A DNA stretch of 58,430 bases from an uncultured archaeon. GTDB lineage: Archaea; Aenigmatarchaeota; Aenigmatarchaeia; CG10238-14; SCSR01. The DNA lies in the NCBI GenBank assembly GCA_964645905.1, contig CAZYBR010000001.1, positions 1 to 58,430 of the forward strand. Reading direction: 5' to 3'. Under the pieces are notes generated by a model, which did no database searches, had not been told where the DNA came from, and saw nothing but the letters and a program-made list of their open reading frames with translations. A program made the translations under genes and the position numbers. Within the stretch, counting starts at the first letter, position 1. Each line of letters begins with the position of its first letter. Shown here one piece after another: positions 9,831-56,867 of the stretch.

Positions 9831-9916
9831 TGCGCCAATCGGGATTTGAACCCGAACATTGACCTTGGGAAGGTCACATCCTTTCCTGCATTTGAACCAG
9901 GCTAGACTATTGGCGC
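9831..9916 (-). tRNA. tRNA-Gly(CCC) with about 11 extra nt in the D arm (putative non-canonical intron)
   Basis: Reverse complement: GCGCCAA TA GTCT AGCCTGGTTCA[AATGCAGGAAA]GGAT G TGACC TTCCCAA GGTCA ATGT TCGGG TTCAAAT CCCGA TTGGCGC A. Acceptor, anticodon and T arms are perfect. 27 nt lie between position 13 and the anticodon stem, where about 14-16 are expected. Confidence 0.75.
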
Positions 9917-10504: not shown

Positions 10505-10516
10505 CTTCTCACTTAG

Positions 10517-10609
10517 CGCTGAGGATGGGAGTCGAACCCACATAGGCTTGCGCCCGCCAGTTTTCCCGATAAATTCGAGACTGGTGCACTACCATTATGC
10601 GACCCCAGC
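10517..10609 (-). tRNA. tRNA-Ser(CGA) with an 11-nt intron at the canonical 37/38 position
   Basis: Reverse complement: GCTGGGG TC GCAT AATGGTA GTGC A CCAGT CTCGAA[TTTATCGGGAA]A ACTGG CGGGCGCAAGCCTAT GTGGG TTCGACT CCCAT CCTCAGC G. The long variable arm fits class II Ser. Confidence 0.85.
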
Positions 10610-24756: not shown

Positions 24757-24792
24757 AAAAATAATTAGTTTAGATATTAATAAAAAGATTAT

Positions 24793-24836
24793 ACCAACCT
24801 TAAGTTAACAGTGTCCCCCGCCAGGTTCTGGTAAGT
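24793..24836. repeat. Intergenic C-run element (copy B)
   Basis: ACCAACCTTAAGTTAACAGTGTCCCCCGCCAGGTTCTGGTAAGT. Its left arm is the reverse complement of the right arm of copy A. The core CCCCCGCCAGG is shared. Confidence 0.7.
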
Positions 24837-24936
24837 CTTTGACGGTTAGTTAGTGCACAAGTATATTTGTTAAGACTCGATTGGTAGATTTCTTTAAAAG
24901 ATAAGAATTTCAATGTGTTAAAATTCAATTGGTTAT
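24824..24936. repeat. Left arm of the ~113-bp inverted repeat bracketing the 24.9-33.1 kb island
   Basis: GGTTCTGGTAAGT (24824-24836), then 78 nt, then GTGTTAAAATTCAATTGGTTAT (24915-24936), directly followed by the ATG at 24937. It matches the right arm read on the minus strand. Confidence 0.8.
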
Positions 24937-25647: not shown

Positions 25648-26241
25648 ATGACAGATGAAATAAAAAAGAAAGAAATGAACGTGATTGCCAAAATAGATAC
25701 TCCAAACTTTAAGCTTGAAATTAATACAGTAGTAGACAGAGCAGACTTAGATGATACTCTTTCTTTTATACTATCCACCTTTGAAAAGAATTACAAAAAA
25801 ATAGATAAGATGTACGGATCAACAATAATCCAACCGACTTTACAAAAAGAAACTAAGGTAGAATATCCGTTTAAAGAGTTAAGCGAACCTGTAATAAACA
25901 TCGCTAGAAGAATGGGGGTGAACCCAGAAAAACTGATTGGTAATAATTTATTTGGGTTCAAGAGTGATAAACCGCAAATTTTTGATCCTTCAAGATTCAA
26001 GAGTGCCAATACAGCTGTGCGTGCATTAGTATATCTTTTTGAGATAGGATTAGGAAAGCAATCAGTCCAAAAAGAAGAGTTAGGAGAAGCTTATGAAATT
26101 AGTAAAATAAAGGGTAGAAAAGTTTCTCAATTGCTGCAAGATCTTAGAAAAATAGGTCAATTGGAAAAAAATGAAATAACACTTACAGCAAAAGGAACAA
26201 GTGAAGCTGAAAATGAGTTAAAAGCTTTGTTATCACTTTAG
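25648..26241 (+). CDS. Hypothetical partner protein of the HEPN-like gene (197 aa), possible C-terminal wHTH
   Basis: ATG immediately follows the upstream stop (TGAATG). C-terminus ...KVSQLLQDLRKIGQLEKNEITLTAKG is wHTH-like. No other motif seen. Confidence 0.45.
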   Translation: MTDEIKKKEMNVIAKIDTPNFKLEINTVVDRADLDDTLSFILSTFEKNYKKIDKMYGSTIIQPTLQKETKVEYPFKELSEPVINIARRMGVNPEKLIGNNLFGFKSDKPQIFDPSRFKSANTAVRALVYLFEIGLGKQSVQKEELGEAYEISKIKGRKVSQLLQDLRKIGQLEKNEITLTAKGTSEAENELKALLSL

Positions 26242-27387
26242 ATGTCTTTCTATAATAAATTTATATTTTGAGTGGAATAATTTGTAAAATTCAACCCACT
26301 TCTCAGCCTTCTCTCTAAACTCAAAATCAGTTCTCATACCGAGTTCTCTTTTCGGGTCCTGAAACTCATTTCCTTGCTCGTCAAGTATTTTTACCTTGTA
26401 GATTACGTCTTTCTCAGGTTCTGGAGCAGTATGACCATTGCCCTGATTACCATCAAGTTTAGATTCCATAGCCATTTTTACCAGTTCCATCCATCTGTTA
26501 CCACCGTTCAAATGAATGTTAATTCTGGAAGCCTCTGCAGGAGTCATGCCATTAAGAGACAGATGAGGTCTGATGAAGTTGTAGTAGGTCATAAATCCAT
26601 TCAGTATATCGGACGTGGATTCGGGTTGGTCAAAACCTCTTGTAACTTTTATTCTATCTCTAACAGTCCCATTAAACCTTTCAACAGGATTATTGTTGAT
26701 ACTTCCTCGCAGTCCAGTAGACCATACATGCTTAGTTTGTGGGTGCCTCCAGAATACCTTTCTAATAGCCTTATCGTAAGCTTGCAAACCGTCAGTAATC
26801 ACAACTTTAGGTTTGTTAATCAGTTTAGACTTACTCTCTTTGAATATCGCAACTGCATCAGCTTGATAACGAGCCTTGGATAATTTACAGGCAGTAATGA
26901 ACTTAGTTTCCTTGTCGATGACATTCCATAACCAGTACCATTTGCCTTTCACAGTAACCATCATTTCATCGGCATGAAGAACACCAGAACTTTCTCCTTT
27001 CAGCTTATCAGTAAATTCCTTGAAGATCTTCGAATATTTCCTTATCCAAAATAAGATGGTTACATGGCTTACCTTTACTCCGTATATCTGCCTTAGATGA
27101 TCTTTGACTCCTCTCAATGACATATTCTTGAAGTAGAGGTCTAAGGCAACTGTTATGATTTCTCCTTTATGCTTCATCTTAGGAAAAGTAGTATTGTCTG
27201 AAAATATTTTCTTGCAGGACTTGCATTTGTAAATCTGAATATTACCGATCTTGTTCTTTCTGTTTCCATGTCTGATTACTTCACTCGCTTTACAGTACCT
27301 GCATTTTGTATCTTTACCCATAACGTCACCCATAACTCTATCAATAACTATACACTTACATATATTTAAAGTTATCGGTAACGCCAC
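26233..27387 (-). CDS. DDE transposase (IS6/IS1-like, integrase-core fold) with an N-terminal zinc finger and a ~75-aa C-terminal extension
   Basis: CRYC...CKSC zinc finger. DDE context HADEMMV..., VITDGLQAY..., NNNPVERFNGTVRDRIK. YNFIRPHLSLNGMTPAEA is typical of the integrase core. The true start may be an internal Met (MGKDTKCRYC). Confidence 0.7.
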   Translation of the reverse strand: MALPITLNICKCIVIDRVMGDVMGKDTKCRYCKASEVIRHGNRKNKIGNIQIYKCKSCKKIFSDNTTFPKMKHKGEIITVALDLYFKNMSLRGVKDHLRQIYGVKVSHVTILFWIRKYSKIFKEFTDKLKGESSGVLHADEMMVTVKGKWYWLWNVIDKETKFITACKLSKARYQADAVAIFKESKSKLINKPKVVITDGLQAYDKAIRKVFWRHPQTKHVWSTGLRGSINNNPVERFNGTVRDRIKVTRGFDQPESTSDILNGFMTYYNFIRPHLSLNGMTPAEASRINIHLNGGNRWMELVKMAMESKLDGNQGNGHTAPEPEKDVIYKVKILDEQGNEFQDPKRELGMRTDFEFREKAEKWVEFYKLFHSKYKFIIERHLK

Positions 27388-27432
27388 CGATAGATTTATA
27401 AGTACTCGATGATATTCTTATTTAGTGATATT

Positions 27433-27651
27433 ATGGAACTCGATAAAGAGGCACAAATTATACTAAAGTTAATTGAAGACTCTAAAGAACCTTTGGAAAC
27501 TAGGGAGGTAGAAGAGAAATTTAAAAATCTCTCAAGATCTAAGATTTTGTACAGATTAAATCAACTGAGAGCTGAGGGTATGATTAAAGGTAAATCTATT
27601 GGTGCAGGTAAAGGTAACTGGGTTTGGTGGAGTAAAGAATCGTTTAGGTAA
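27433..27651 (+). CDS. Small winged-helix protein (72 aa), first gene of the type III R-M operon
   Basis: MELDKEAQIILKLIEDSKEPLETREVEEKFKNLSRSKILYRLNQLRAEGMIKGK is wHTH-like. Its stop overlaps the next ATG (TAATG). The track start at 27409 is also possible. Confidence 0.5.
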   Translation: MELDKEAQIILKLIEDSKEPLETREVEEKFKNLSRSKILYRLNQLRAEGMIKGKSIGAGKGNWVWWSKESFR

Positions 27652-27887
27652 TGATTATGGCAGGACAGTATGAAACACTAAGTTGTCCATTTTGTGATAA
27701 AGGCAAGATAACTTGCTTGTATTTCCCTAGTGTTATTAGCGTTAAAAGAGAGAAGTCCGCTACCTTTGGTTCTAAAACATCAAGAAGTAAATCTTCTGAT
27801 ACATGGCTTGTCCAATCTGGGTGCAGCTTTTGTGGTAAATCACAAGAAGAAGTGGAGAAGGAACTAAAAAAGCGAGATATCATTTAA
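27651..27887 (+). CDS. Small zinc-ribbon protein (78 aa)
   Basis: CPFC...(41 aa)...CSFC four-Cys arrangement. Translationally coupled to the upstream wHTH gene. Ends 17 nt before mod. Confidence 0.5.
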   Translation: MIMAGQYETLSCPFCDKGKITCLYFPSVISVKREKSATFGSKTSRSKSSDTWLVQSGCSFCGKSQEEVEKELKKRDII

Positions 27888-27904
27888 CAAAAGTAGGCTA
27901 AATT

Positions 27905-29842
27905 ATGGATGACTTAAAACTGTTATGGAAAAATAAGAAAGAAGAAGTAGATAAGATTGTATTACCTTTTCAGAAAATAGAGACAGTAACTATATCTCGA
28001 ACGGGTAAAGACACACTGAATGTATTAAGAAATACCGATAATAGTTCTTGGAAAAACAAACTTATTTGGGGTGATAATAAGTATATTCTGGCTTCTTTGT
28101 TAAAAGACCCTTCTATTGCCGGAAATATAAAACTAATTTATATAGATCCGCCTTTCTTCACAGGTACGAACATGAATATTCCTATTAAAATAGGTGATAC
28201 TAGTGAAGTCACAAAAGAACCTTCTGCAATTGAAGAAGTTGCTTATAGAAATATGTGGAAAGGAAACAGTAGAGAAGAGCAAGCATCATCTTTTTTGCAA
28301 TACATGTATGAACGAATAAAATTAATGCACGATTTGCTTTCGGAAGATGGTTCGATGTATGTAAGATTCGATTATCATTATTCTCATTATATTAAAATAA
28401 TACTGGATGAAATTTTCGATTATGATAATTTTAGAAATGAAATAATTGTAAATAGGACCAGAAAAAACGTTATGGAATCGCAAACACAAAGAGTTTTTCC
28501 TACTGCTACTGATTCTTTATTTTTTTATTCTAAAAATAATTCAGCATTTTTAAATAAAGTTGTCAAAAAACTTGAGCAAAAACGAGAGGGTTTTTGGAGA
28601 CACATGGATGATTCGGCGGGACAAGGAAGTCCAAAAATATTTTTTGGTAAAAAACTATCACCACCAGTCGGCAAACACTTCAAATATTCTCAAGAAAAAA
28701 TTGACGAAATGATTAAAAATGGAAAAATCAGATTACATTGCAAAAACTGCGGCTATGAACATACAGAAGGCAATTGGAATAAATGCCCCTCATGTAAAAA
28801 GGATAACCCAAGACCAGAATATTGGGTATCTGAACGAGAACACGCTTTACTAGATACAAATTGGACAGATATACCTGGTTATTCATTTAGTACAGGATAT
28901 CCAACCGAAAATTCCGAACATTTATTGGAGAGAGTTATACTCGCTTCTTCTAATCCAAGTGATTTAGTTGCTGACTTTTTTGCAGGATCGGGGACTACAA
29001 ACATAGTTGCCGAAAAGTTGAATCGTAGATGGATAGCTTGCGATATAGGAAGATTTTCAATTCATACAATAAGAAAACGACTTCTTGAAATACCTACATG
29101 CAAACCATTTGAAGTTCTTAATATGGGTAAATATGAAAGAAAATATTGGGCAACTGAGACATTAGGAGAAGATTATAAAAAATATATTGATTTTATTGTA
29201 CAATTATATAACGCCAAACCATTGAATAATTTTGAATATATTCATGGGAAAAAAGGTAGTAAGGCTGTTCATGTCGGATTAGTAGATTCACCTGTTTCAA
29301 AAAAAGAAATATTTGACGCACTCGCTGAATGTAAAAAAGTGGGCTTCGACAGTCTTGATGTGCTTGGCTGGGAATGGGAAATGGGTTTGAATGATTCAAT
29401 AATAAAAGATGCTAAAGATTTATTTACTGTGAATCTAGCTCTTTGGGTTATACCTAGAGAAGTGATGGATAAAAGGGCTGTGGAAGCGGGTGATATAGAC
29501 TTTTATGAACTTGCTCATTTACAAGTGGATGTTTCGAAAGAAGCTAGAGGTGTGAAAATTAAACTTGAAGATTTCATAATTCCTAACCCTGAGCTTATTC
29601 CTGCAGAAGTTCAGAAAAAAATTAAAAAATGGAGCGACTATATAGATTATTGGGCAGTTGACTGGGAATTTAAAGATGTTTTTCATAACGAATGGCAGAC
29701 ATATAGAACCAAAGACTCCTCTAATTTAAAACTTGAGACACCTTCTCATGATTATCGAAAAGGTGAGTACCAAATACTGATTAAAGTTATTGATATTTTC
29801 GGCAATGATACAAGTACGATAAGACGAATTGTGATAAAATGA
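27905..29842 (+). CDS. mod: Type III R-M DNA methyltransferase (Mod), beta-class N6-adenine/N4-cytosine
   Basis: Motif IV IYIDPPF precedes motif I DFFAGSGTT (beta order). The variable region between them has a CKNC...CPSC zinc ribbon. ATGA overlap with res. Confidence 0.85.
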   Translation: MDDLKLLWKNKKEEVDKIVLPFQKIETVTISRTGKDTLNVLRNTDNSSWKNKLIWGDNKYILASLLKDPSIAGNIKLIYIDPPFFTGTNMNIPIKIGDTSEVTKEPSAIEEVAYRNMWKGNSREEQASSFLQYMYERIKLMHDLLSEDGSMYVRFDYHYSHYIKIILDEIFDYDNFRNEIIVNRTRKNVMESQTQRVFPTATDSLFFYSKNNSAFLNKVVKKLEQKREGFWRHMDDSAGQGSPKIFFGKKLSPPVGKHFKYSQEKIDEMIKNGKIRLHCKNCGYEHTEGNWNKCPSCKKDNPRPEYWVSEREHALLDTNWTDIPGYSFSTGYPTENSEHLLERVILASSNPSDLVADFFAGSGTTNIVAEKLNRRWIACDIGRFSIHTIRKRLLEIPTCKPFEVLNMGKYERKYWATETLGEDYKKYIDFIVQLYNAKPLNNFEYIHGKKGSKAVHVGLVDSPVSKKEIFDALAECKKVGFDSLDVLGWEWEMGLNDSIIKDAKDLFTVNLALWVIPREVMDKRAVEAGDIDFYELAHLQVDVSKEARGVKIKLEDFIIPNPELIPAEVQKKIKKWSDYIDYWAVDWEFKDVFHNEWQTYRTKDSSNLKLETPSHDYRKGEYQILIKVIDIFGNDTSTIRRIVIK

Positions 29843-32376
29843 TGGGACCATTCAATAAACCTGATAATAGAATAGAGACATTCTGCCCATTGGTGTTAAA
29901 GATACGAGAAGAAGTCGACAAGTGGAGAGACTCTGGTTATGATGGTGTGTCAGAAACTACAAAAATTCTTCTTAATTTTTGGTTTAACGAAGGTCACATG
30001 TCTAATGGGAAACTATTCAAATATTATTTCTGCCAAAGAGAGGCAATCGAAACATTGGTATTTTTATTTGAAGTAAAACAAATTAGAACTCTCAGAGATC
30101 TTGTAATCAACTATGATATTAGCAAAAAAATTGCTTATAATCCTCATGATGATTTATTCACGAAATTTTGTTTTAAAATGGCTACAGCTTCTGGTAAAAC
30201 AAAAGTTATGGCTTTAGCAATAGTGTGGTCTTTTTTAAACAATGTCATAGAACAAAATAAAGATTTTTCCAAAAGTTTTATTATTATTGCGCCTAATATA
30301 GCTGTTTATGAAAGATTGAGAACAGATTTTTCAGGCGGTGAAATATTCAGAAGTGACCCCCTAATACCAGAAGAGTTTCAAAATTATTGGGATGTCGATG
30401 TTGTTTTAGAAGATGAATTAACAAGTCGGTCGGCAAAAGGTAGAATATATCTTACAAATGTCCAAAAACTTTATGAACGCTCAAATGATACTGAGAGCCT
30501 GAACCCCGTAGAAGCAATAGTTGGAACTAAACCGAGAGAAAAGAACGCATATGAAACTATTTTTGATGATTTAATGAAACTTGATGATATTTCTATAATT
30601 AACGATGAGGCTCACCATGTTTGGGATCCTGAATCGAAATGGAGTGAATTTATATCAAAACTTTTCAAACGATTTAAAAAAGATGGAAAACTATTTGCTT
30701 TCCAGCTTGATTTTTCCGCTACGCCAAAGAAGCAGAATGGCGGACTTTTTGAATGGGTTATAGCAGATTATCCTCTTGCTGATGCTATAAGAAATGGAAT
30801 TGTAAAAAGACCTATTATTGGAGAAGTTGAAAATGCAAAAGAGACTCCATCGGAAAGAGCCGATATTGTTTACAGAGATTACATAGAAGCTGGAATAAGG
30901 AGGTGGAGGAGATACAGAGAAGTCATGATAAACGTAAAGAAGAATCCTATAATATTTTTCATGGCTACTAAAACGAAAGAAGCTGAAGATATAAGAGATT
31001 TTCTAGAAACAAAATCCGATTTCAAAGGTAAGGTTCTTTTGATTCATACGAATTTGAAAGGGGATATAAGTGAAAAGGAATGGACTAAACTTAAAGAAGA
31101 ATCAAGAAATCTAGATTCTGATAGCGACAAATATCGAGCTGTCGTAAGTGTTCTTATGCTTAGAGAAGGATGGGATGTTAAAAATGTAACTATTATAGTA
31201 GGTCTCAGACCGTATACTTCCAAAGCCAACATACTACCAGAACAAACGTTGGGAAGAGGATTGAGATTAATGTTTGGTCCTAAATCTGGGTTTGAAGAAA
31301 CTGTAGATGTTTTCGGTTCTAGTGCATTTATTGACTTTATCGATTCTGAGTTAAAGAAGGAAGGCGTTAGAATTCAGAGACTTAAAGAAAGGGAAATGCC
31401 AGATGTTACTAATATTTTCGTTGACCCAAGGAAAATGAAATTCAATGTAGAAATTCCCAATATAACTCCTAAGTATACAAGAATAAACAGATCATTTGAT
31501 GACATTAAGGTTGAGAATCTTCCCAAAGGTCCATTTGAATTAGATTTGAAATCGTACTCGATAAAGAAAATAGCTAAAGGAAGAGATGCCTTAACGAATA
31601 AAGAAGTTTGGAAAGATCAATGGAACCAAATTATACCTGAAAACTTTGAGTCTATAATAGGTTATTATTCGAATCGTATACTTAGAGAATGTAAAATACC
31701 ATCGCGAAACTATGAATTTATCCCGAAATTAAAGGAGTACATTTTAAAACGTTTATTTGGCAGAGAACTTACCGAAAAAGAAATCAGCAACAAACTTTTC
31801 TTAAGGCAGTTCATAGAATCAAGCATATACTCCTATTTAATGACGCTATTCCCGAGAGTTATAAACACTTTGACCATAACACCGCAAGAAGTTAAACTGA
31901 ATCAAGAACCTAAAATGGCGTCTCATGTAGAGCCATTTCTGACTAGGAAGGAAGTCTACAATTCAAAGAAATGCATATTGAATTTAGTACCTATTGATAA
32001 TGATTTGGAAGGTAGGTTCTGTATTTTTTTGGATTCGGCTAAAGATGTTAAAACATTTATTAAGAACGATGTGAATCTGAACTTCTATATAGAATACGTC
32101 AATGAGAAAAAAGGAATTTCGTATTATGTACCAGATTTTGTTATAGAAACTAACAATGAATTCTTTATTGTAGAAACTAAGGGTGTTGAAACGGAGGATG
32201 TGGAATTCAAGGATAAGAGAGCTACTGAATGGTGTGAAGATGCTTCAAAATTAACAGGTAAAAAATGGGAGTATATCAAAGTAAAACAAATAATTTTTGA
32301 CGAAAACCAGAACATAAAAACATTCAGTAAATTAGTGGAGTTGATAAAGGCATATCAACTAGCGACGAATTATTAA
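29839..32376 (+). CDS. res: Type III restriction enzyme Res subunit (SF2 helicase + PD-(D/E)xK nuclease)
   Basis: MATASGKTKV (Walker A), NDEAHH (DEAH box), LMLREGWDV, and a C-terminal nuclease motif YVPDFVIE...FFIVETKG. Confidence 0.85.
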   Translation: MMGPFNKPDNRIETFCPLVLKIREEVDKWRDSGYDGVSETTKILLNFWFNEGHMSNGKLFKYYFCQREAIETLVFLFEVKQIRTLRDLVINYDISKKIAYNPHDDLFTKFCFKMATASGKTKVMALAIVWSFLNNVIEQNKDFSKSFIIIAPNIAVYERLRTDFSGGEIFRSDPLIPEEFQNYWDVDVVLEDELTSRSAKGRIYLTNVQKLYERSNDTESLNPVEAIVGTKPREKNAYETIFDDLMKLDDISIINDEAHHVWDPESKWSEFISKLFKRFKKDGKLFAFQLDFSATPKKQNGGLFEWVIADYPLADAIRNGIVKRPIIGEVENAKETPSERADIVYRDYIEAGIRRWRRYREVMINVKKNPIIFFMATKTKEAEDIRDFLETKSDFKGKVLLIHTNLKGDISEKEWTKLKEESRNLDSDSDKYRAVVSVLMLREGWDVKNVTIIVGLRPYTSKANILPEQTLGRGLRLMFGPKSGFEETVDVFGSSAFIDFIDSELKKEGVRIQRLKEREMPDVTNIFVDPRKMKFNVEIPNITPKYTRINRSFDDIKVENLPKGPFELDLKSYSIKKIAKGRDALTNKEVWKDQWNQIIPENFESIIGYYSNRILRECKIPSRNYEFIPKLKEYILKRLFGRELTEKEISNKLFLRQFIESSIYSYLMTLFPRVINTLTITPQEVKLNQEPKMASHVEPFLTRKEVYNSKKCILNLVPIDNDLEGRFCIFLDSAKDVKTFIKNDVNLNFYIEYVNEKKGISYYVPDFVIETNNEFFIVETKGVETEDVEFKDKRATEWCEDASKLTGKKWEYIKVKQIIFDENQNIKTFSKLVELIKAYQLATNY

Positions 32377-32407
32377 TCGTTTTAAATAATATGTGAACTA
32401 ATGTCAA

Positions 32408-33064
32408 CTAATTCTCTTGTAGAATAGAAGGATACGATCTTTTAATTTCTGTAATTAATTTATTAATACCAGTCTCTATATCATCGGTGCGAATTTTAAT
32501 GCCTTGTTTTTGTTCTGCCAGACCAGTTATGTTAGTTTCGTCGAAAATAAGTGGAACTACTATTTTATCTTTAGCCATAGCATATCCAGTCTCTTGATTT
32601 GCCCAAGCCGATAAATTAAAATTATCTGTAATTAACGGGAGGAATAAATCACAAGAGTCCAAGTGTTTTTCTATTTCGTCTCTCCATTCAGATGATATCT
32701 CGACTTCTTCATGAGCTAAAAAAGATTTTATGTTGAATTTTCCTAGTTCTTCTTTAACTTTACCTGCAATATTTTTATCTTTAGTGTTATAACTCAAGAA
32801 TGCTTCTCTTGACATCTCGTCTAGTGTTATGATAGTCTCAGAGCCGTGTCTTTCAAGCTTTTCCACACGTCCAATTATAGGAGGGTTGAGTTTTTGAAGT
32901 GGTATAGTCATCATGGGTCTATCAAAGGAACCTACTTCTCCTGTTGATGAGTTTTCTATAGCAGGTGTTCTAATTGAGGTTTGACTGTAGAAATACGCCT
33001 CAGTAATCTTGATCATGTCACCTCTTCTTGCATTAAATGTGCCACTAATAGCTACAGTTATCAT
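32408..33064 (-). CDS. TIR-like domain protein with an uncharacterised ~90-aa N-terminal domain
   Basis: C-terminal half AFLSYNTKDKNIAGKVKEEL...FLAHEEV...SCDLFLPLITDNFNLSAWANQETGYA follows the TIR pattern (FxSYxxxD ... S.W...E). The track start at 33070 is TTG; I use the ATG at 33064. Confidence 0.55.
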   Translation of the reverse strand: MITVAISGTFNARRGDMIKITEAYFYSQTSIRTPAIENSSTGEVGSFDRPMMTIPLQKLNPPIIGRVEKLERHGSETIITLDEMSREAFLSYNTKDKNIAGKVKEELGKFNIKSFLAHEEVEISSEWRDEIEKHLDSCDLFLPLITDNFNLSAWANQETGYAMAKDKIVVPLIFDETNITGLAEQKQGIKIRTDDIETGINKLITEIKRSYPSILQEN

Positions 33065-33174
33065 AACCAATTGAAATTTAACACTAGATGTATTTATTTA
33101 ATTCATAACTAAGAAACAACCGAAACTTAACACAAAATTTCTTTATAAGCACCAATCAACAACTTACCAGAACC
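33063..33174. repeat. Right arm of the ~113-bp inverted repeat bracketing the island
   Basis: Read on the minus strand: GGTTCTGGTAAGT (rc of 33162-33174), then 77 nt, then GTGTTAAATTTCAATTGGTTAT (rc of 33063-33084). This is 21/22 identical to 24915-24936, and its last bases overlap the ATG at 33064. Confidence 0.8.
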
Positions 33175-33599: not shown

Positions 33600-33817
33600 T
33601 GGATATAAAAATAGTTTACTGCGTGCCGTGCGGGTATATCCAAAAAGCAGAATGGATGAAGAAGGAATTGGAAAAATCTATAAAGGATGCGAAAGTGAAA
33701 CTCGAGCCTGGAGACAAGGGCATCTTCGATGTTTATGCTGATAAGAACCTGCTCTTTTCCAAGCACAAAGAGGGAAGGTTCCCAGATTCTAAGGAAATAA
33801 TAAGACTGGTGAAATAA
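33599..33817 (+). CDS. Rdx-family (SelW/SelT/SelH-like) thioredoxin-fold protein with CxxC
   Basis: MDIKIVYCVPCGYIQKAEWMKKELEK...PGDKGIFDVYADKNLLFSKHKEGRFP matches the Rdx pattern (IxYCxxC/U ... G.FEV ... SK...g.FP). Confidence 0.65.
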   Translation: MDIKIVYCVPCGYIQKAEWMKKELEKSIKDAKVKLEPGDKGIFDVYADKNLLFSKHKEGRFPDSKEIIRLVK

Positions 33818-36800
33818 TGGCTGAACAAACAAACGAAGTCAGATTGAAAGTCGGAGAGCTCACCGCACGAGAGGAAGCAGGCAGGGGGATTGTCAGGATA
33901 GATTCTAATACGATGAGCAAGCTGCAAGTCAAGGAAGGCGATGTGATAGAAATCGAGGGGTCAAAGATCAGCGCCGCCATAGCTGTCCGCTCTTATCCTG
34001 CAGATGTAGGATTGAACATCATTAGAATGGACGGCATAACAAGAAGGAATGTCGGCAGCGGCGTGGGAGAATACGTGAAACTGAGAAAAGCAGAAGTCAA
34101 GGAAGCCAAGTCTGTCACATTGGCGCCGGCACAAAAAGGCATCATGATCCATATATCGCCGAATTTGATAAAACAAAACATTTTTATGCGCCCGATGGTC
34201 AAGGGTGACATAATCTCGCCGTCTCCTGTCGGAAGAAGAAGAAGTTCAGGCCTGTTCGAGGATTTCTTTGGAATGGACATAGAAGAATTTTTCCCGTCAT
34301 TCACTCCATTTTCAGGAGATATAAAATTCATTGTTGTCAATACGAGCCCTGCGGGTGTTGTAAAGATCGGCGAGATAACGGAATTGGAAATATTGCCGCA
34401 GCTGCCAGAATCGATGAAGCTCGAAGACAGGGCAGTCCCTACTGTGACATATGAAGACGTCGGCGGAATCAGGGAGATCATTCACAAAGTAAGGGAAATG
34501 ATCGAATTGCCATTGAGGCATCCGGAACTGTTCGAAAGACTGGGAATCGAGCCACCGAAAGGAGTCTTGTTGTACGGGCCGCCTGGGACTGGCAAGACAT
34601 TATTGGCGAAGGCTGTGGCGAACGAATCAGGCGCATATTTCATTTCTATCAGCGCTCCTGAAATTATGAGCAAGTGGTATGGCGAAAGCCTGCCTTATGA
34701 CGAGAAAATCTTGGTTTCAGAAAAGGGTATGGTTAAACGAAAACCCATAGGTGAAGTCGTGGAAAGCGGGAACAAAGATATACAGGTTCTTTCTTTTGAC
34801 GAGCAAGGCAAAATAAGATTTGCGAAAGTCACGGACTTGATTAAGCATAAGAACACAGGAAAATTGCTGGAGGTCGTGACAAAAAGCGGAAGAAAGATAA
34901 AAGTTACCGACTATCACAGCCTGTTCACTCTGGACGGTGGCAAAATAAAAAGCATCAGGACATCTGAATTAATTCCGAAGAAATCTTTCATCGCAGTACC
35001 GAGATTCATCCCTCAAGCGGGGACCAATCTGGAAGAGATAAATATTTTGGATTCGTTGAAAGAGAATGACCTAGGTTTGGTCACTAGAAACGTGCAAGGA
35101 TATGTAAAACGCGCCATTGAGAAAATCGGCGCGGACAGGGTTGCCGGAATTCTAAAATGCAATAAGAATTATATCTGGTTCATACTCAACAAGAACATTG
35201 GGATAAGAATTTCCAAATTCATGAAGCTTATGGAAGCTGGAAATGTTACAATCAATGATGATGTGCGAATTTACAGTAGAACAAAATCTTTGCCAGCAAA
35301 AATCAAGCTTACAGACGATTTCCTTACATTCCTAGGATTGTGGGTGGCGGAAGGGTCATACACTAAGAATGGCAATGTCAGGCTTACTGTCCATAGGAAA
35401 GAAGCCAGTGATGTCAAGGCCCTCTGCGAGAGGCTTTTTGGAAAAGTGGCTGAATATGAATATAAAGAAAACGCTACAGACATTTATATTTCGTCGACGG
35501 TTTTGTACAAAGTGATGAAGGATGTCCTGGGTTTGATGGGTGGCGCGAGAAACAAGCATGCACCTGATATTGTCTTCAATTTAAGCAAAGAGAAGGTTGC
35601 GGCTTTTCTTACAGGCTATCTGAGCGGCGATGGTTCCATCTACGCCAACCAGCACGGAGTCCCGCAGATAGAAGCGTCCACAGCCAGTGAAAAATTGGCC
35701 GATGATTTGATGCATCTTTTCCTCTATTTCGGCATCATTGCGAAAACATATGACAGGAAAAACGAAGACGCAAAGAGAGTAGTGCTCACAGGAGTGGACA
35801 ATCTCCTGAAATTCAAGCAGATAGGGTTCATCGACTGGAAAAAGAATTCCATGGTAACAGACTATCTTACGAATGTTGCATGGAAGAGAAGCGATCAAAT
35901 ACCTTCAGGCGGGCTTGACCCGATAATAAGCCACATTCCTCAAATCAAGCAATGGGCAAACTCTGAGACTATCGGAAGGGGCATTCTAGGGCAGGTGGCT
36001 GATATGGACACGGCAATCGAGTACGGGTTGGATGAGGATTTGATGCAGGATGCGATAAGATTGGTGTCAAATGACATTTATTGGGACAGAGTCGAGGAAA
36101 TAAAGGAGATTAATAACGAGAAATATGTCTATGATATATCCGTTTCTCCTAGTGAAAACTTTCTCGCTGGATTTGGCGGTATATTTGCACATAACAGCGA
36201 ACAGAATATAAAAAGGATTTTCGAAGAGGCTGAGAAAAACGCTCCTGCGATTATTTTCATTGATGAGATCGATGCAATCGCGCCGAAGAGAGAGGAAGTA
36301 AGCGGCGAAGTTGAAAGAAGAGTCGTGTCCACATTACTGACGCAGATGGACGGATTGAAGAAAAGAGGGAAAGTAATTGTCATTGCTGCGACCAACAGAC
36401 CGAACAGTCTGGATTCTGCAATCAGAAGAGCAGGAAGGTTCGATAGGGAGATTGAATTTCCTGTGCCGGACAGGGAGGGAAGACTGGATATTTTCAAGAT
36501 CCACACGAGGAACATGCCGATGGCAAAAGACGTTGATTTGAACCACCTTTCTGAAATCACTTATGGTTTTGTTGGCTCTGACATATGGGCAGTAGGAAAA
36601 GAGGCAGCCATGTCCGCATTGAGAAGGGTCCTTCCAGAAATAAAATGGAAAGAAGATGAGGAGCTGCCGAAAGAAATCATAGAGAAGCTCATTGTCACTA
36701 AAGACGATTTCGAGGATGCACTGCGCATAGTCGAGCCTTCGGCGATGAGGGAAGTCATGGTCGAGATACCGAATGTTAAATGGGAGGACATAGGCGGACT

Positions 36801-37620
36801 CGATGAAGTGAAAGAACAATTGCAAGAAATGGTAGAATGGCCTCTGAAGAGTCCTGATTCGTTCGAAAGATTGGGCATATCGCCACCGAGGGGAATATTA
36901 TTGTACGGGCCGCCTGGGACTGGCAAGACATTATTGGCGAAGGCTGTGGCGAACGAGGCCGGAGCGAATTTCATTTCTATAAAAGGCCCAGAAATGTTTT
37001 CCAAATGGGTCGGCGAATCAGAAAAAGCGATAAGGGACGTGTTCAGAAGAGCGAGGCAAGTCGCGCCTGCTATAATTTTTCTGGACGAGATCGATGCGAT
37101 CGCGCCGAGAAGAGGAATGTACAGCGGAAGCGGCGTAACAGAAACTGTTGTCGCGCAATTATTGTCAGAGATTTCCGGATTGGAGGAATTGAAAGGTGTG
37201 GTCGTGATGGCTGCGACGAACCGTCCCGACATTGTCGATTCTGCATTATTGCGGCCTGGAAGGTTTGACAGGATGGTCTTGGTCCCTGCGCCGGATATTA
37301 AATCACGATTGGAAATTTTCAAGGTGCATACTAAAAAGATGCCGCTTACAAAGGACGTTGACCTGAAAGAATTGGCAAGGAAGACTGAAGGGTTCTCTGG
37401 GGCAGACATAGAGTCATTGTGCAGGGAAGCTGGAATGGAATCCTTGAGGGAAGACAAGAAGAGCAAGGAAGTCAAGATGAAGCATTTCGATAAAATGCTT
37501 GCGGGTATCACACCTAGTGTGACAAGAGACGTGGTAAACTATTATGAAAAATTCTCGGAAAGGAAAAAAAAGACGGACAGGGGAGAAGAAAAGGACGCCA
37601 CACCTAGATACATCGGATAG
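33817..37620 (+). CDS. cdc48: Cdc48/VCP-type double AAA+ ATPase, intein-containing precursor (1267 aa; 764 aa after splicing)
   Basis: Cdc48 N-domain ([21 protein letters not shown]...), two GPPGTGKT Walker A sites, two DEID Walker B sites. The D1 sequence ...MSKWYGE | intein | [12 protein letters not shown]... is restored by removing residues 291-793. Confidence 0.9.
34687..36195 (+). mobile_element. Intein (503 aa) with a LAGLIDADG homing-endonuclease domain, inserted in Cdc48 D1
   Basis: Starts [10 protein letters not shown] (Ser1). Block [11 protein letters not shown] (TxxH). LAGLIDADG motifs [10 protein letters not shown] and [11 protein letters not shown]. Ends ...GIFAHN, followed by Ser+1. 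Excision recreates the canonical YGESEQ. Confidence 0.85.
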
Positions 37621-37654: not shown

Positions 37655-40504
37655 ATGCGGAATCTCGCTGCCATAATGGCGATTTCAATCTTGCTCATAT
37701 CATCATTTTATTCTCCGATTGTCTTGGCACAGGAAACGCCTCCTCCGTCAGCAACAACTTCAGGAACTGGCGGGGCAACAAGCACCAGTGGAACAACTAC
37801 AACAACTTCCTCAACGGCGACACCCAGTACATCTGAAACAAGCTCAGGATCCACACAAACAACTTCTTCAGGAACTGGAACTACATCAGGATCAACTGGC
37901 CAGACAAGTGGAACACAAACAAGTGGAACTACAGGGACAAAATCCTCATCGGAAGGCACTGTGCCTCCAGCAACTCAACCGCTGGTAGGCACACCTCTAA
38001 ATGAGCCACCTAGGACTGAAACAAAACCTCCAATAGAAGGTCAGAATGTATGTCCGCCTTCGCCGCAACCGCCGGCATGCGGAGAAAATCAAGGAGTGAT
38101 ACCACGTTTTGACGCCAATAAATGCATATCGGGCTATGATTGCAAAGAAATACCAAAAGCGACTGGCGGAGAAGGATCAGTGTGCCCGCAGATTCCACCG
38201 CCAAGCATATCATGCCAGCCCAATGAAAGACTGAATAAAGCCACTGACGACAAAGGATGTGTCATTGGTTTCAATTGTGTGTCATCATCGGCAACAAGTG
38301 CGACCACGACTCCGCAATCTCAACAATGTCCGGCTGCCCCAGAAAAACCAGCATGCCAAGGAAGTGTAGCACCGGTTTTTGATAGAGGATGTTTGATTTC
38401 TTATACATGCGTGCCTGAAGGGTGCAGACAAGAGACTGATGCTTCAGGATTCGTTCGTGTTGTTTGTTCACAAGAAAAAGTTTGTCCGGCTGGTGACCAG
38501 CAGAAGCAGCTAGTCGACAATTGTAAAGCTCAAGGCGGTAATCCTCTTGCATCGCATGATGCTAATGGATGTACATTTTATGATTGCAGGTTCGACAATA
38601 GAGAGTCAAATCCAAATCCGATATCTGGCCATAGGTCGTGTCCGACACCAGAAAAAATAAACGAGGAAGGGACGCTATGCAGGCAATCAGGTTTAAATCC
38701 TGGAATCTCATATGAAGGCGGATGTAAAGTTGTCAGGTGCTCGCAGGAAAGCGGACCGAGATGCGAATATATCCCAGAGTCGCAGAAAGCCAGGATAGAA
38801 AGCGAATGCTCCGCAAAAGGATTGCCGACCGTAAACTGGGTTGATAATAAGGGATGCGCCCTTTACAGATGCGGCGGTGAAGAAGGATCTGAATTTTCAT
38901 CATGCCAGAAAAATATCCCGTCAGAAGCGTATAAAGCTTGCAACGGCAAAGGGGGAGAGATGATAGTCAAAAATGACGCCCAAGGTTGCATCGTATTTTC
39001 ACAATGTGTTGCGCCTGGAAATAAAAATGATGCTTATGTATCACAAGTGGAGGAAGTCCCTGACACGACGGTTCTTCTCAGCCTGGCGTTGAAGCTGGAG
39101 AAGTTGAAAATCGAGCTGCAGAAGCTTGCATCTGAATCCAAGGAAATAGCCAAGTTTTACGAATCATCGGGATCGCTTGATGAAGAGAGATATACGAGAG
39201 TCTCTTCGATGTTCAGTGATGCGGCAGAAAGAGTTGATGAAATTAAAATAAAAATAAGGGGCAGTGCTGAAACTATCACTCCAGATGACTTGACAGAAAT
39301 AAAGCATGATATAAAGTACATCAAGGATGTCACGTTGAAAGATATTCTTTATCTGATGTTGAGCAACAGCGACGATGTGAAAGAGACTCTGGAAGCGAGT
39401 AGGAATATCAATGTGAACGAGCGTTCGATCGAAAAATTGGAAGCGAGCGTGAAGAGCTGTGCTACCGATGGTTCATGCTTTGATAAGGCGATAAGATCGT
39501 GCAAGCCTGTGTCGTTCCAGCCAGAAGGCAGAAACGGACCAAGCCTGACAATCAAGGGAATAAAGGATGGCGCATGTTTATTGCACGTTGTGATGCAGTC
39601 GGAAAACATGATACCGCCTGGATTTACGAAAGATGAATTCTATATGGAATGTGCGATCAAGAATTATGCGCTCGGTGTGAGGGGACCAGAAGATATCATC
39701 CCTAACTGTGAAGGTCCTATGGCTAAATTCGCAAAACAGTTTGGCGGCGGCGCACAGATTAGCGGAGGAGATGATGAATTCCAGAATATTCTAGAAACAG
39801 AAGGAGGACCGGGAGGATGCACAAATGAGAAAGAATGTGCGACTTATTGCATCGACAATTATGAAGAATGTAGAAGCTGGGTAAAAGAACATCCAGCAGT
39901 CGGGTCAATGCCGTCACGTGAAGAACTGCAGGACATCGCATCGGGCAAAGGACAGCAGTTGGAACGAAGACAAGGGCAACAATCGGGCGGCTTCGCAGGA
40001 CCTGGGGGATGTAAAGGGCCGCAAGAATGCGATAACTTTTGTAGAGATAATCCTGAAGAGTGCACTGAATGGTGTGAAGAAAATCCAGATATTTGTAAAG
40101 GCGCCCCGCCACAAAGCATACCGCAACAAGGAGGTCCTGGAGAATTCGGTTCGCGGGCAGCGTCGGGATCTCAGCCACAAGAATTTGGAGGACAAGGTTC
40201 CCGGTCTTCTGGAAGTGCGCAAGCGTGTGTAGGCTGTCTGAACAATGGCGTGTGTGATATCGGAGAATGTAGCGAATGTGGTGATTGCAGGTCTGGAACT
40301 GGTTTCACCGGACCTTCATCGAATATACGGCAAGGCCCTCAACAAGGATTCAATCAACCACAGCAGCAGGAATCCAACAGACAGCCTCAAGGAAACCAGC
40401 CGGGATTCCAGGAAGAGTTTAGACCTCCGCAGCAAACAAATCAACCGCCTCAAGGGTCTAGCCCGCAAGCACAACCAGTACCACAAACTAATTTACCACA
40501 ATAA
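37655..40504 (+). CDS. Large secreted Cys-rich modular protein (949 aa)
   Basis: Signal peptide (MRNLAAIMAISILLISSFYSPIVLAQE). Thr/Ser/Gly low-complexity spacer. Seven tandem 4-Cys modules, a coiled-coil middle, two GPGGC..EC...C....EEC..W modules, and a Gln/Pro-rich tail. Confidence 0.7.
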   Translation: MRNLAAIMAISILLISSFYSPIVLAQETPPPSATTSGTGGATSTSGTTTTTSSTATPSTSETSSGSTQTTSSGTGTTSGSTGQTSGTQTSGTTGTKSSSEGTVPPATQPLVGTPLNEPPRTETKPPIEGQNVCPPSPQPPACGENQGVIPRFDANKCISGYDCKEIPKATGGEGSVCPQIPPPSISCQPNERLNKATDDKGCVIGFNCVSSSATSATTTPQSQQCPAAPEKPACQGSVAPVFDRGCLISYTCVPEGCRQETDASGFVRVVCSQEKVCPAGDQQKQLVDNCKAQGGNPLASHDANGCTFYDCRFDNRESNPNPISGHRSCPTPEKINEEGTLCRQSGLNPGISYEGGCKVVRCSQESGPRCEYIPESQKARIESECSAKGLPTVNWVDNKGCALYRCGGEEGSEFSSCQKNIPSEAYKACNGKGGEMIVKNDAQGCIVFSQCVAPGNKNDAYVSQVEEVPDTTVLLSLALKLEKLKIELQKLASESKEIAKFYESSGSLDEERYTRVSSMFSDAAERVDEIKIKIRGSAETITPDDLTEIKHDIKYIKDVTLKDILYLMLSNSDDVKETLEASRNINVNERSIEKLEASVKSCATDGSCFDKAIRSCKPVSFQPEGRNGPSLTIKGIKDGACLLHVVMQSENMIPPGFTKDEFYMECAIKNYALGVRGPEDIIPNCEGPMAKFAKQFGGGAQISGGDDEFQNILETEGGPGGCTNEKECATYCIDNYEECRSWVKEHPAVGSMPSREELQDIASGKGQQLERRQGQQSGGFAGPGGCKGPQECDNFCRDNPEECTEWCEENPDICKGAPPQSIPQQGGPGEFGSRAASGSQPQEFGGQGSRSSGSAQACVGCLNNGVCDIGECSECGDCRSGTGFTGPSSNIRQGPQQGFNQPQQQESNRQPQGNQPGFQEEFRPPQQTNQPPQGSSPQAQPVPQTNLPQ

Positions 40505-46476: not shown

Positions 46477-47076
46477 ATGGTGCTGGTGGAGCTGCTGTCG
46501 GGCTTTGTCACAGACTTTATTTCGAGTGTCGGGTATCCCGGCGTGTTCATCTTGATGCTATTGGAGAGTGCATTGATACCTATACCGAGCGAGATCATAA
46601 TGCCTTTCTCCGGTTTTCTGGTCGCGACTGGAGAATTCAACATGTTCTATGCGCTTTTGGCAGGGACGCTCGGGAATCTTATAGGATCGCTGATATTGTA
46701 CTACATCGGCATGCATTTCGGCAGGAACATGGTGCTCAAGTATGGGAGATACATCTTGGTCGACAAAGACCACTTGGATATGGCTGACAGGTGGTTCAGC
46801 AAGTTCGGTGAAAAGATAATCTTTGTGAGCAGGAACCTGCCTGCTGTAAGGACTTTGATCGCGTTGCCTGCGGGCATCAGCAGGATGAATCTTATGAGAT
46901 TCTCGATTTACACTCTAATCGGGTCCGTCCCATGGAACTTTGCATTGCTATATGCTGGAGTTGTGATGGGCAAAAACTGGGAGACGATTCTGAAATATAC
47001 AAACATTTTGGACGTATTCATAATAATTGGCGCTATAGTCTTCGTCATATGGTGGGTAAAAATAAGGACAAAATAG
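46477..47076 (+). CDS. DedA-family (VTT domain) membrane protein
   Basis: GYPGVFILMLLESALIPIPSEIIMPFSGFL...GNLIGSLILYYIG..GR is the DedA signature. Confidence 0.8.
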   Translation: MVLVELLSGFVTDFISSVGYPGVFILMLLESALIPIPSEIIMPFSGFLVATGEFNMFYALLAGTLGNLIGSLILYYIGMHFGRNMVLKYGRYILVDKDHLDMADRWFSKFGEKIIFVSRNLPAVRTLIALPAGISRMNLMRFSIYTLIGSVPWNFALLYAGVVMGKNWETILKYTNILDVFIIIGAIVFVIWWVKIRTK

Positions 47077-47199
47077 CCCCGGGCGGATTCGAACCGCCGT
47101 TCCGAGGGTTCTTCCTTCATCTTTGCATCAGTGCTTTGTGTAAAGTCCAAAGCCTTCCACTTTTTTAATTCGTGTGCTTGTCCACTACACTACAGGGCT
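47074..47199 (-). tRNA. tRNA-Gln(UUG) interrupted by two introns (15 nt near 29/30; 38 nt at or near 37/38)
   Basis: Reverse complement: AGCCCTG TA GTGT AGTGGACAA GCAC A CGA[ATTAAAAAAGTGGAA]GG CTTTGG[ACTTTACACAAAGCACTGATGCAAAGATGAAGGAAGAA]C CCTCG GAAC GGCGG TTCGAAT CCGCC CGGGGCT A. The A1:U72 pair and GTAGTGG D loop are typical of archaeal tRNA-Gln. The mature form is 73 nt. Confidence 0.75.
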
Positions 47200-47813
47200 A
47201 TCTTTAATCTATTACTACCTATCTCTTTAAAATATTTCTGTATTTCAGCTTTACGAGTCAAAACAACCCTATTTCCAAATATTTTGGATGGTATGAATCC
47301 TAAGGCAATTAACGACTCTCTAAAATCATTCAATAATATGCTATTGTTGTTTTTAAACGATATTTGCAATAAATTAGGCCAATGTGGTTTTAGCCGAGAG
47401 ATGGATCCGTCTGTATCGACAAGACCACGTATACACGATGCTAATAGCTTGTTATCGCTTTTAATCCAAGCAGGAATGCCTAATTTATTTCTGATTTTGT
47501 CTCCGCTTTTCAAACCAATAGATCGTAGAAACTCTACTAAATTTTTGCTATCGGAGTATACAATTACTGCATTCTTACCCTTAGGAAAACGTATATGCGG
47601 CACTATTCCGAATAACTCGGACATAAGATTCTTAACGAATCTAGTCACATAATCTGCTTCTGTGATAGAATTGCCAGTTATTCTGACCTGATTATCATTA
47701 GGACCAACGAAAATGCTTCCGTCTCCAAGCATAATACCTACAAATTCCGCCAACTCTTCTGTAAACTCGGGTGACTTAATCTTAATTAAGCTAGACATAA
47801 ACTGACTATTCAC
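47190..47813 (-). CDS. Free-standing LAGLIDADG homing endonuclease (207 aa)
   Basis: Two canonical motifs, FVGIMLGDGSI and IRGLVDTDGSI. Its last 10 nt, including the stop, overlap the 5' end of tRNA-Gln. Confidence 0.8.
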   Translation of the reverse strand: MNSQFMSSLIKIKSPEFTEELAEFVGIMLGDGSIFVGPNDNQVRITGNSITEADYVTRFVKNLMSELFGIVPHIRFPKGKNAVIVYSDSKNLVEFLRSIGLKSGDKIRNKLGIPAWIKSDNKLLASCIRGLVDTDGSISRLKPHWPNLLQISFKNNNSILLNDFRESLIALGFIPSKIFGNRVVLTRKAEIQKYFKEIGSNRLKIAL

Positions 47814-56779: not shown

Positions 56780-56867
56780 GCCTCAGTAGCTCAGTCGGCA
56801 GAGCATACCATTAGGGCTCAATCGCTTCGTAAGCGAGAGGTCATGGGTTCAAGTCCCATCTGAGGCT
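56780..56867 (+). tRNA. tRNA-Thr(CGU) with a 15-nt intron at non-canonical position 27/28
   Basis: GCCTCAG TA GCTC AGTCGGCA GAGC A T[ACCATTAGGGCTCAA]TCGC TTCGTAA GCGAG AGGTC ATGGG TTCAAGT CCCAT CTGAGGC T. Removing 15 nt restores a 73-nt cloverleaf. Confidence 0.8.

Follow-up and report, generated by a model that had tools for sequence, protein, structure and literature searches.

The tRNA-Gln(UUG) gene at 47074..47199 on the minus strand of contig CAZYBR010000001.1, a 58,430-nucleotide (nt) stretch of archaeal DNA analysed here as a whole and referred to as the window, is 126 nt long and overlaps a gene for a putative homing endonuclease. How could such a gene yield a mature tRNA, what are the extra sequences within it, and how did it come to adjoin an endonuclease gene? 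A sequence-only reading of the window had proposed that the gene carries two introns and that all four tRNA genes of the window are interrupted. We consider it highly probable that these genes are functional, that their inserts are introns of the bulge-helix-bulge (BHB) type, that the tRNA-Gln precursor would be spliced stepwise, that its second intron is guide-like, and that the gene belongs to a module with a LAGLIDADG endonuclease.

Interrupted tRNA genes

The Rfam tRNA model has four matches across the window, at 38-53 bits, each with a large unaligned insert, and no fifth tRNA appeared in the window when the search was relaxed to E<=1. All four genes are over-long, as the sequence-only reading had claimed: tRNA-Gln(UUG) (126 nt, 38.2 bits), the type II tRNA-Ser(CGA) (10517..10609, minus strand, 93 nt, 45.3 bits), tRNA-Gly(CCC) (9831..9916, minus strand, 86 nt, 53.1 bits), and tRNA-Thr(CGU) (56780..56867, plus strand, 88 nt, 47.1 bits). 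A scan of the window with ARAGORN sees one of the four and mis-calls it as Ala(GGC); this identity is ruled out for the Thr gene by its C3:G70 pair (there is no G3:U70) and by the poor anticodon loop that it would have.

With five inserts excised, ARAGORN calls the intron-free genes as Gln(ttg), Gly(ccc), and Thr(cgt), each of 73 nt, and Ser(cga) of 82 nt. Excision restores a canonical cloverleaf in all four tRNAs with the stems intact. The identity elements that can be read from the sequences are A1:U72 and A73 in Gln, the long variable arm and G73 in Ser, and U73 in Thr, and TATA-like AT-rich boxes were found by eye about 25-35 nt 5' of each gene. The tRNA-Gln gene has three exons (47170-47199, 47147-47154, and 47074-47108) and two introns, and the two-intron structure suggested earlier for this gene is borne out by the 73-nt Gln(UUG) that remains. 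A single large intron was rejected, as it would leave neither U33 nor a 7-nt anticodon loop.

Bulge-helix-bulge motifs

The strict 3-4-3 hBHBh' motif and its relaxed forms (HBh', hBH, and BHL, the bulge-helix-loop) have been defined previously (PMC3239211, PMC5829648). In the register that we derived from the canonical 37/38 case, the 4-bp central helix H pairs the four exon nucleotides before the 5' bulge with the four intron nucleotides before the 3' bulge, and the RNA is cut behind the second nucleotide of each 3-nt bulge (marked below by a slash). An ARAGORN-filtered enumeration of all single excisions accepted hundreds of alternatives, so boundaries cannot be fixed that way.

Intron 2 of tRNA-Gln (47109..47146, minus strand, 38 nt) lies at the canonical position 37/38 and forms a strict hBHBh' motif, with a complete H (CUUU/GAAG, 4/4), an h' of 5 bp, and bulges GG/A and AA/C. 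The intron-side strand of H, GAAG (47111..47114, minus strand), pairs with C32-U35. The length given by the earlier reading stands, and the site, which it had left approximate, is 37/38 with C38 as the following nucleotide, rather than A38 or a junction at 38/39. Intron 1 (47155..47169, minus strand, 15 nt, AUUAAAAAAGUGGAA) interrupts the 5' strand of the anticodon stem at 29/30, where BHB placement agrees with the earlier proposal; its motif is relaxed, with three of four pairs in H (C25-A26-C27 with G-U-G, and an A24.G mismatch), an h of 4 bp, an h' of 2 bp, and a 3' bulge AA/G.

The other three tRNAs have one intron each. That of tRNA-Ser (10563-10573), 11 nt at 37/38, forms a bulge-helix-loop with its 5' site in the loop (H CUCG/CGGG, 4/4; h 5 bp; no h'), and that of tRNA-Thr (56807-56821), 15 nt at 27/28, forms an HBh' motif in which the D stem takes part with its 3' strand (H GAGC/GCUC, 4/4; h' 2 bp; no outer h). 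Both were correctly located and sized before. The tRNA-Gly intron (9883-9895) is indeed in the D arm, but it comprises 13 nt at position 20/21 of the D loop and not about 11 nt; its motif is relaxed (H CCUG/CAGG, 4/4; h' 1 bp; 3' bulge AA/A). Three of the five introns are thus at non-canonical positions. The 3' bulges of all five have the form AA/N (AA/G, AA/C, AA/A, AA/A, and AA/T), and AA in this bulge is also common among metagenomic tRNA-Gln introns; it may reflect a sequence preference of the endonuclease of this lineage.

The central helix is complete in four introns and has 3/4 pairs in Gln intron 1, so that 19 of 20 pairs are formed in the exact BHB register. Shuffled introns gave a mean of 7.4 and a maximum of 17 pairs, and none of 20,000 shuffles reached 19. 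Under a more generous null, in which the boundaries could slide by +-2 nt, beyond the freedom that we used, 17 of 5,000 shuffles reached 19. BHB motifs can therefore be drawn at the proposed junctions. In their behaviour the inserts match archaeal introns of the BHB type, with three at non-canonical sites, which agrees with the sequence-only reading. During maturation, the local fold of each precursor would present the junctions in bulges beside a 4-bp helix, in a full or relaxed BHB; EndA would cut both junctions and the RtcB ligase would join the exons, judging from what is known of these families.

Several observations weigh against this interpretation. No intron is significant singly under the null with +-2-nt sliding, and the strict motif occurs in Gln intron 2 only, the other four being relaxed through the absence of h or h' or through a mismatch. 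The boundaries of the Gly intron and of Gln intron 2 were set with the BHB rule itself. Neither an endA nor an rtcB gene is present in the 58-kb window, so the enzyme is assumed. If the interrupted genes were instead decaying pseudogenes or products of mis-assembly, with the functional tRNAs encoded elsewhere in the genome, it would be understandable that ARAGORN fails to call three of the genes when scanning the window. We regard this as very improbable, given that all stems are intact after excision, that the inserts keep the BHB register, that the same intron classes recur in many independent metagenomes, and that Logan assemblies of four runs contain the same UptA gene and end within the adjoining tRNA-Gln 3' exon.

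The ends of these Logan contigs deserve a separate remark. Four independent contigs (L001-L004) with an identical UptA-like gene stop inside the tRNA-Gln 3' exon, 23 nt past the UptA-like stop codon (window 47054-47076). The common stopping point is probably a branch in the de Bruijn graph, caused by a second tRNA-Gln isoacceptor with the same T arm and acceptor strand.

Order of splicing in the tRNA-Gln precursor

G31-U34 form part of the outer helix in the BHB of intron 1, and C32-U35 form part of the central helix in that of intron 2. Because nucleotides 31-35 are shared, the two folds cannot coexist, and splicing must be stepwise. The minimum free energy (MFE) fold of the full precursor has -36.6 kcal/mol and includes the 6-bp GCTTTG...CAAAGC hairpin pointed out in the sequence-only reading, which is therefore a real feature of the predicted precursor. 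When the BHB folds are enforced on the full precursor, that of intron 2 has -29.1 kcal/mol and that of intron 1 has -33.0 kcal/mol, 3.6 over the MFE. After removal of intron 1 the MFE fold has -36.3 kcal/mol, is BHB-like, and has an intact anticodon stem. These folding models suggest that intron 1 is removed first; the intron-2 BHB would be energetically competitive only once intron 1 has left the anticodon stem.

An endonuclease gene adjoining tRNA-Gln

Directly 5' of the tRNA-Gln gene is a free-standing LAGLIDADG open reading frame (ORF) of 207 amino acids (47190..47813, minus strand; Pfam LAGLIDADG_3, E 1.4e-11). Its last 10 nt overlap the 5' end of the tRNA gene, and its TAG stop codon coincides with tRNA positions 8-10. 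The protein has the makeup of a LAGLIDADG enzyme: a monomer of about 200 amino acids with two motifs, LAEFVGIMLGDG and CIRGLVDTDG, each with a conserved acidic residue. Both motifs and the catalytic Asp are invariant in eight homologues (46-49% identical).

A local tBLASTn search located homologues of 47-48% identity directly 5' of a two-intron tRNA-Gln in metagenomic loci L038 and L091, and a database search returned 354 homologues, many from DPANN archaea and some from bacteria of the candidate phyla radiation (CPR) and Omnitrophica. We examined ten archaeal loci, namely the window, L038, L091, and seven that were fetched from assemblies labelled Micrarchaeota, Aenigmarchaeota, and Aenigmatarchaeota and from other metagenomes. 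The flanking genes of the fetched loci vary (threonyl-tRNA synthetase/S12-S7, PyrI, DJ-1/dUTPase, RIO kinase, alanyl-tRNA synthetase), and in all seven a tRNA-Gln gene of 116-167 nt, carrying two or three introns, comes next after the ORF, which it either overlaps or follows within a few nucleotides. Hence all ten archaeal homologues (45-54% identity) are directly 5' of a tRNA-Gln with 2-3 introns. The introns in the 5' half of these tRNAs are at 10/11, 17/17a, 19/20, 21/22, 22/23, 23/24, 25/26, or 29/30, and H is 4/4 wherever the boundary could be placed, partly by manual placement.

The survey covered 121 tRNA-Gln genes. Upstream sequence of 650 nt or more was available for 40 that lack introns, and the ORF adjoins none of these. 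The ORF is also absent from 51 intron-bearing genes, making 91 tRNA-Gln genes without it among those with enough upstream sequence. The locus therefore shows what is expected of a homing site, one conserved position (10/10) combined with presence/absence polymorphism (91 genes without the ORF). We found no description of this endonuclease-tRNA-intron arrangement in the open-access literature; the module is conserved across DPANN archaea and apparently undescribed before.

The linkage could have arisen by homing, which is the simplest interpretation in mechanistic terms. The ORF would then encode a free-standing homing endonuclease with a putative target in the 5' half of tRNA-Gln; one or more non-canonical introns at positions 10-30 would interrupt the target site and protect the carrier allele, and endonuclease and intron would spread or persist jointly, in the manner of collaborative homing in phages (PMC3984707). 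The regularities described above fit such a history: all ten homologues abut multi-intron tRNA-Gln genes despite their differing flanking genes, one intron is invariably located between 10/11 and 29/30, at varying sites, the intron-less genes lack the ORF (0/40), and neither motif varies in its catalytic Asp. A bacterial homologue, moreover, sits between tRNA-Ser genes, there is the phage precedent, and how non-canonical tRNA introns originated is under debate (PMC3239211). We nevertheless hold the homing explanation only tentatively and think it somewhat more likely to be wrong than right, considering that 51 intron-bearing tRNA-Gln genes lack the ORF, that the intron sites are spread over about 20 bp, which is wide for one recognition site, and that the loci are not phylogenetically independent. 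The overlap also makes the ORF and the tRNA inseparable, and the linkage could therefore be plain vertical inheritance of an inseparable pair in an intron-rich clade.

Some individual loci are unusual. There are three introns in the tRNA-Gln genes of L133 (~2165-2318; 10/11, 25/26, and 37/38) and L132 (~2121-2236; 17/17a, 29/30, and 37/38), in both of which the LAGLIDADG ORF continues into the tRNA and its first intron for 20-40 nt. In an Omnitrophica bacterium (L137:1088-2473), a 341-aa homologue lies between an uninterrupted tRNA-Ser(UGA) and tRNA-Ser(CGA)/(GGA), an arrangement which suggests that this LAGLIDADG clade is tied to tRNA genes beyond the archaea. In L029 and L107, tBLASTn gave weak matches that resemble LAGLIDADG sequences (28-35% identity, 41-68 bits) beside tRNA-Gln genes with an intron near 10/11; the matches may be decayed endonuclease genes.

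A family of antisense introns

Within Gln intron 2, the segment ACAAAGC (47133..47139, minus strand) is antisense to nucleotides 31-36 (GCUUUG) of the same precursor and accounts for the hairpin mentioned above. The sequence-only reading had recognised neither the nature of this hairpin nor the LAGLIDADG gene that overlaps the tRNA. One nucleotide downstream of it begins a K-loop-like motif (47117..47131, minus strand) composed of a D'-like CUGA (47128-47131), UGCAAA, and a C'-like GAUGA (47117-47121), so that U34 is opposite the fifth nucleotide upstream of CUGA. The antisense helix and the pairing of the GAAG strand in the BHB are mutually exclusive.

The same layout recurs in a family of introns consisting of 14 tRNA-Gln(UUG) 37/38 introns (including that of the window), three of tRNA-Ser(UGA), and one of tRNA-Glu(UUC) in GCA_964373665.1. 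It comprises a 6-7/7 complement to the tRNA's own nucleotides 31-37, one nucleotide, NUGA, 5-6 nt or, in long forms, a stem-loop, and GAUGA, after which come the BHB H strand and the AA bulge. The antisense fits the loop of each tRNA, as GAAAGG in Glu and CUCAAGG in Ser. In an alignment of the 14 Gln members, NUGA and GAUGA are invariant blocks, and the spacing between antisense and NUGA is exactly 1 nt in all 14. The D' and C' boxes needed for a K-loop are present (CUGA-N6-GAUGA in the window) and could form tandem sheared G.A pairs with a short closing loop, with the N1:G6 pair being U.G or C-G in 13 of 14.

Across the family the antisense helix is 98% paired, compared with 27-65% when the partner strand is slid, and the competing BHB fold is 96% paired. 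Three of the seven antisense pairs have changed on both sides (31 G:C to C:G, 35 U:A to G:C, and 36 G:C to C:G or A:U), and the covariation score is 0.295 as against 0.110 +- 0.024 in shuffles (0/500). An unbiased scan for the layout gave 17 matches, versus one on reversed sequences. A covariance model of the antisense fold recovers members on which it had not been trained and nothing convincing outside tRNAs; its weak matches in L127, L071:7899, L103:1173, and L045 have no tRNA context and were discarded. A match of the K-loop pattern in the tRNA-Lys(CUU) of L083 is also spurious, its GAUGAA being the H strand and bulge of a 30/31 intron. The layout is absent from the introns of tRNA-Leu(UAG) and tRNA-Arg(UCG) in L008 and L127; U34 alone is therefore insufficient for this intron type.

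What might such an intron do? In C/D guide RNAs, a K-loop is formed by a box D'/C' pair, and the modified nucleotide is opposite the nucleotide five positions upstream of this box, the N+5 rule (PMC7994747). The layout of intron 2 looks like the D'/C' half of a methylation guide that is pointed at the wobble nucleotide, and the intron may be a cis-acting minimal guide for 2'-O-methylation of nucleotide 34. L7Ae would bind the CUGA...GAUGA K-loop while the adjacent antisense pairs with nucleotides 31-37; Nop5-fibrillarin would then methylate nucleotide 34 before the precursor refolds into the BHB and is spliced. Besides being common to the Gln, Ser, and Glu introns, the arrangement puts nucleotide 34 (U34) at N+5 in 15 of the 17 scan matches. 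The antisense co-varies with the anticodon loop at 31, 35, and 36, and in a long-form tRNA-Gln(CUG), whose antisense is CCAGAG, it is C34 that falls at N+5. As in K-loops, a pair can form between the Y of YUGA and the G of GAUGA, the antisense helix is within the MFE fold, and the covariance model finds untrained members. Archaeal C/D-guided wobble ribose methylation is known, including trans-acting guides for wobble positions such as U34 of tRNA-Leu(UAA) (PMC7994747).

Against the guide function stands the presence of one K-turn element only, with no terminal C/D pair (no RUGAUGA...CUGA in or around the intron), and single-site C/D ribonucleoproteins (RNPs), although active, are no longer site-specific in vitro (PMC1635284). 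The antisense has 6-7 nt as compared with the usual 10-12, and the intron matches no Rfam C/D family; a canonical C/D small RNA pattern was likewise absent from the window and L008. The bare K-loop motif occurs eight times in the window, which is about the estimated chance level. Family members were partly chosen for their complementarity, and the common register could stem from common descent of the introns. Alternatively, the K-loop could be a device for folding, protection, or timing, which binds L7Ae without any methylation and, in the last case, holds back the BHB. The conserved GA-GA motif, the missing second K-turn, and the competition of the antisense helix and K-loop with BHB helices H and h' are all compatible with such a device, but it leaves unexplained both the exact 1-nt spacing between antisense and NUGA in every member and the tracking of each anticodon loop by the antisense. 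We judge the folding device quite unlikely, and the methylation guide a real possibility that falls somewhat short of an even chance.

The host and its splicing endonuclease

The window encodes an A-type ATPase operon, an intein-bearing Cdc48 with a LAGLIDADG domain, an S-layer protein, a topoisomerase, a diphthamide synthase, and an ERCC4 nuclease with an adjacent helicase, at a G+C content of 33-46%. The best relatives of the ATPase A subunit are 82% and 78% identical, and the nearest named ones, at about 71%, are from Aenigmarchaeota, Micrarchaeota, and Diapherotrites. From gene content and these relatives, the host is a DPANN-type archaeon; the lineages with which it groups include the ARMAN-type Micrarchaeota. 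The gene content also excludes a nucleomorph or eukaryotic origin. A comparison of the ATPase I subunit with genome contigs found distant bacterial V-ATPases alone (23-26%) and gave no lineage information.

The 78% relative, GCA_964373665.1 (L008), has introns of 38 nt in tRNA-Glu(UUC) and 41 nt in tRNA-Leu(UAG), and another tRNA-Leu is uninterrupted. Orthologues of the window's Thr, Gly, or Ser tRNAs were not found among the fetched loci. Searches by tBLASTn with sequences of Methanocaldococcus jannaschii L7Ae, fibrillarin, and EndA found no matches in the DNA analysed and are uninformative.

The sequence-only reading had taken the introns to imply a heterotetrameric or epsilon2 splicing endonuclease. 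This is too narrow. Heavy tRNA disruption in DPANN archaea is also reported to accompany alpha4 enzymes bearing an L3 loop (Kaneta et al. 2018, PMC5829648), and in these archaea disrupted tRNAs co-occur with alpha4+L3, (alpha-beta)2, and epsilon2 enzymes. The type of endonuclease therefore cannot be inferred from the introns.

Frequency of interrupted tRNA-Gln genes

That four out of four tRNA genes are interrupted had been called striking, but in ARMAN-2 56% of tRNAs are disrupted and environmental tRNA-Gln genes are often interrupted, which makes the count unremarkable. A metagenome scan with the exact tRNA-Gln 3' exon gave 120 loci and 98 unique genes, including the window's own. No intron was found in 43 of these, one in 42, two in 12, and three (as called) in one, so that 55 of the 98 unique genes sharing this 3' exon bear introns, at positions from 8/9 to 44/45. 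H is 4/4 in 27 of the 31 environmental tRNA-Gln genes with a 37/38 intron. One class (L026/L070) has a 12-nt 29/30 intron with the same H of 3 bp and a mismatch as Gln intron 1 of the window, and L132 is another gene with an intron at 29/30. Multi-intron tRNA-Gln genes are common among environmental archaea, and the basic finding is ordinary for DPANN-type archaea.

The gene closest to that of the window is the 158-nt tRNA-Gln of L038 (1175-1332, minus strand), on the 840-kb contig Ga0315279_10000004, with which it shares the ACAAAGC antisense, the CUGA box, C38, and the LAGLIDADG neighbor. Rfam missed this gene even at E<=0.01, and heavily interrupted tRNAs thus escape standard searches. In addition, the tRNA-Lys(CUU) of L083 (554-650, plus strand) has a 20-nt intron at 30/31 with a perfect HBh' motif (H CAUC/GAUG, h' CAGC/GCUG) that ARAGORN misplaces. 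As ARAGORN found one of the window's four genes, mis-called, and Rfam missed the 158-nt gene, the tRNA sets of DPANN archaea are probably under-annotated.

Other features of the window

The Cdc48/VCP AAA ATPase gene (33817-37620, plus strand) contains an intein with its own LAGLIDADG_3 domain (Intein_splicing, residues 306-793), a second LAGLIDADG element within the same 58 kb. The stretch 20000-33100 has a low G+C content (33-36%) and contains a DDE transposase (26233-27387), an N6/N4 DNA methylase (27905-29842), a ResIII helicase/restriction subunit (29839-32376), and a TIR-domain protein (32408-33070); it looks like a mobile or defence island. Three ORFs have no Pfam match at the thresholds used: 37655-40504 (plus strand, 949 aa), 20909-22441 (minus strand, 510 aa), and 23497-24756 (minus strand, 419 aa). 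The longest ORF of a histidine-phosphatase gene (9935-10543, minus strand) shares 27 nt with the 3' end of tRNA-Ser, and its true start codon is probably further downstream than the start of the longest ORF.

Significance

Multi-intron tRNAs in a DPANN archaeon would by themselves be a further example of a known pattern. More would follow if the proposals made above are correct. An endonuclease-tRNA-intron module would offer a testable mechanism for the debated origin of non-canonical archaeal tRNA introns. An intron of 33-41 nt with a single K-loop and a self-complementary guide would be the smallest natural methylation-guide-like element and would extend intron-encoded guides past tRNA-Trp and the Euryarchaeota; it is also relevant to the question whether C/D RNPs with a single site function in vivo. 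Taken together, DPANN tRNA-Gln might be a composite selfish and functional module that combines endonuclease-driven intron immunity with a half C/D guide intron, although we consider the combination unlikely. Were it true, the endonuclease would have repeatedly selected BHB introns in the 5' half, at varying sites, as immunity, the canonical intron would have been reduced to a half guide with a single K-loop that methylates its own wobble ribose, and the same guide device would operate in Glu and Ser tRNAs.

Comparison with known systems

The tRNA-Trp intron of Euryarchaeota is about 100 nt long and has complete C/D and C'/D' motifs with two guides, for C34 and U39. It is the only intron-embedded guide in the reviews (PMC11408192, PMC4090602, PMC7994747). 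It shares several features with the introns described here: the tRNA-Trp intron is also at 37/38, its guide fold competes with the BHB, and its guide upstream of D' pairs with its own anticodon loop, with nucleotide 34 at N+5 (Clouet-d'Orval 2001; Singh 2004; PMC11408192, PMC7994747). The window-type introns differ in having 33-41 nt, one K-loop, and one antisense of 6-7 nt, and in occurring in the Gln, Glu, and Ser tRNAs of DPANN-like archaea, where the guide role is a predicted one.

The tRNAs of ARMAN-2, other Micrarchaeota, and further DPANN archaea resemble those of the window in their short introns at canonical and non-canonical sites, relaxed BHB motifs, several introns per gene, and DPANN host (PMC3239211, PMC5829648). 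The K-loop/antisense introns and the LAGLIDADG-tRNA-Gln fusion are a difference, in that the accessible portions of these two papers make no mention of them. In the Thermoproteales, according to PMC3239211 (citing Sugahara 2008 and Fujishima 2010), multi-intron tRNAs likewise have up to three introns per gene, with sites in the D arm and anticodon stem, and require alternative precursor folds for each BHB. These organisms belong to another superphylum, however, and that account ascribes intron gain to transposition between tRNAs and reports no endonuclease linkage.

For the LAGLIDADG gene, the closest parallel is the collaborative homing of phages (PMC3984707), in which the endonuclease gene is also beside, and not within, the intron-bearing gene, and in which, as could be the case here, the intron breaks the target of the enzyme. 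The phage systems involve self-splicing group I introns in protein genes, whereas the module described here joins an endonuclease gene to protein-spliced BHB introns in an archaeal tRNA gene.

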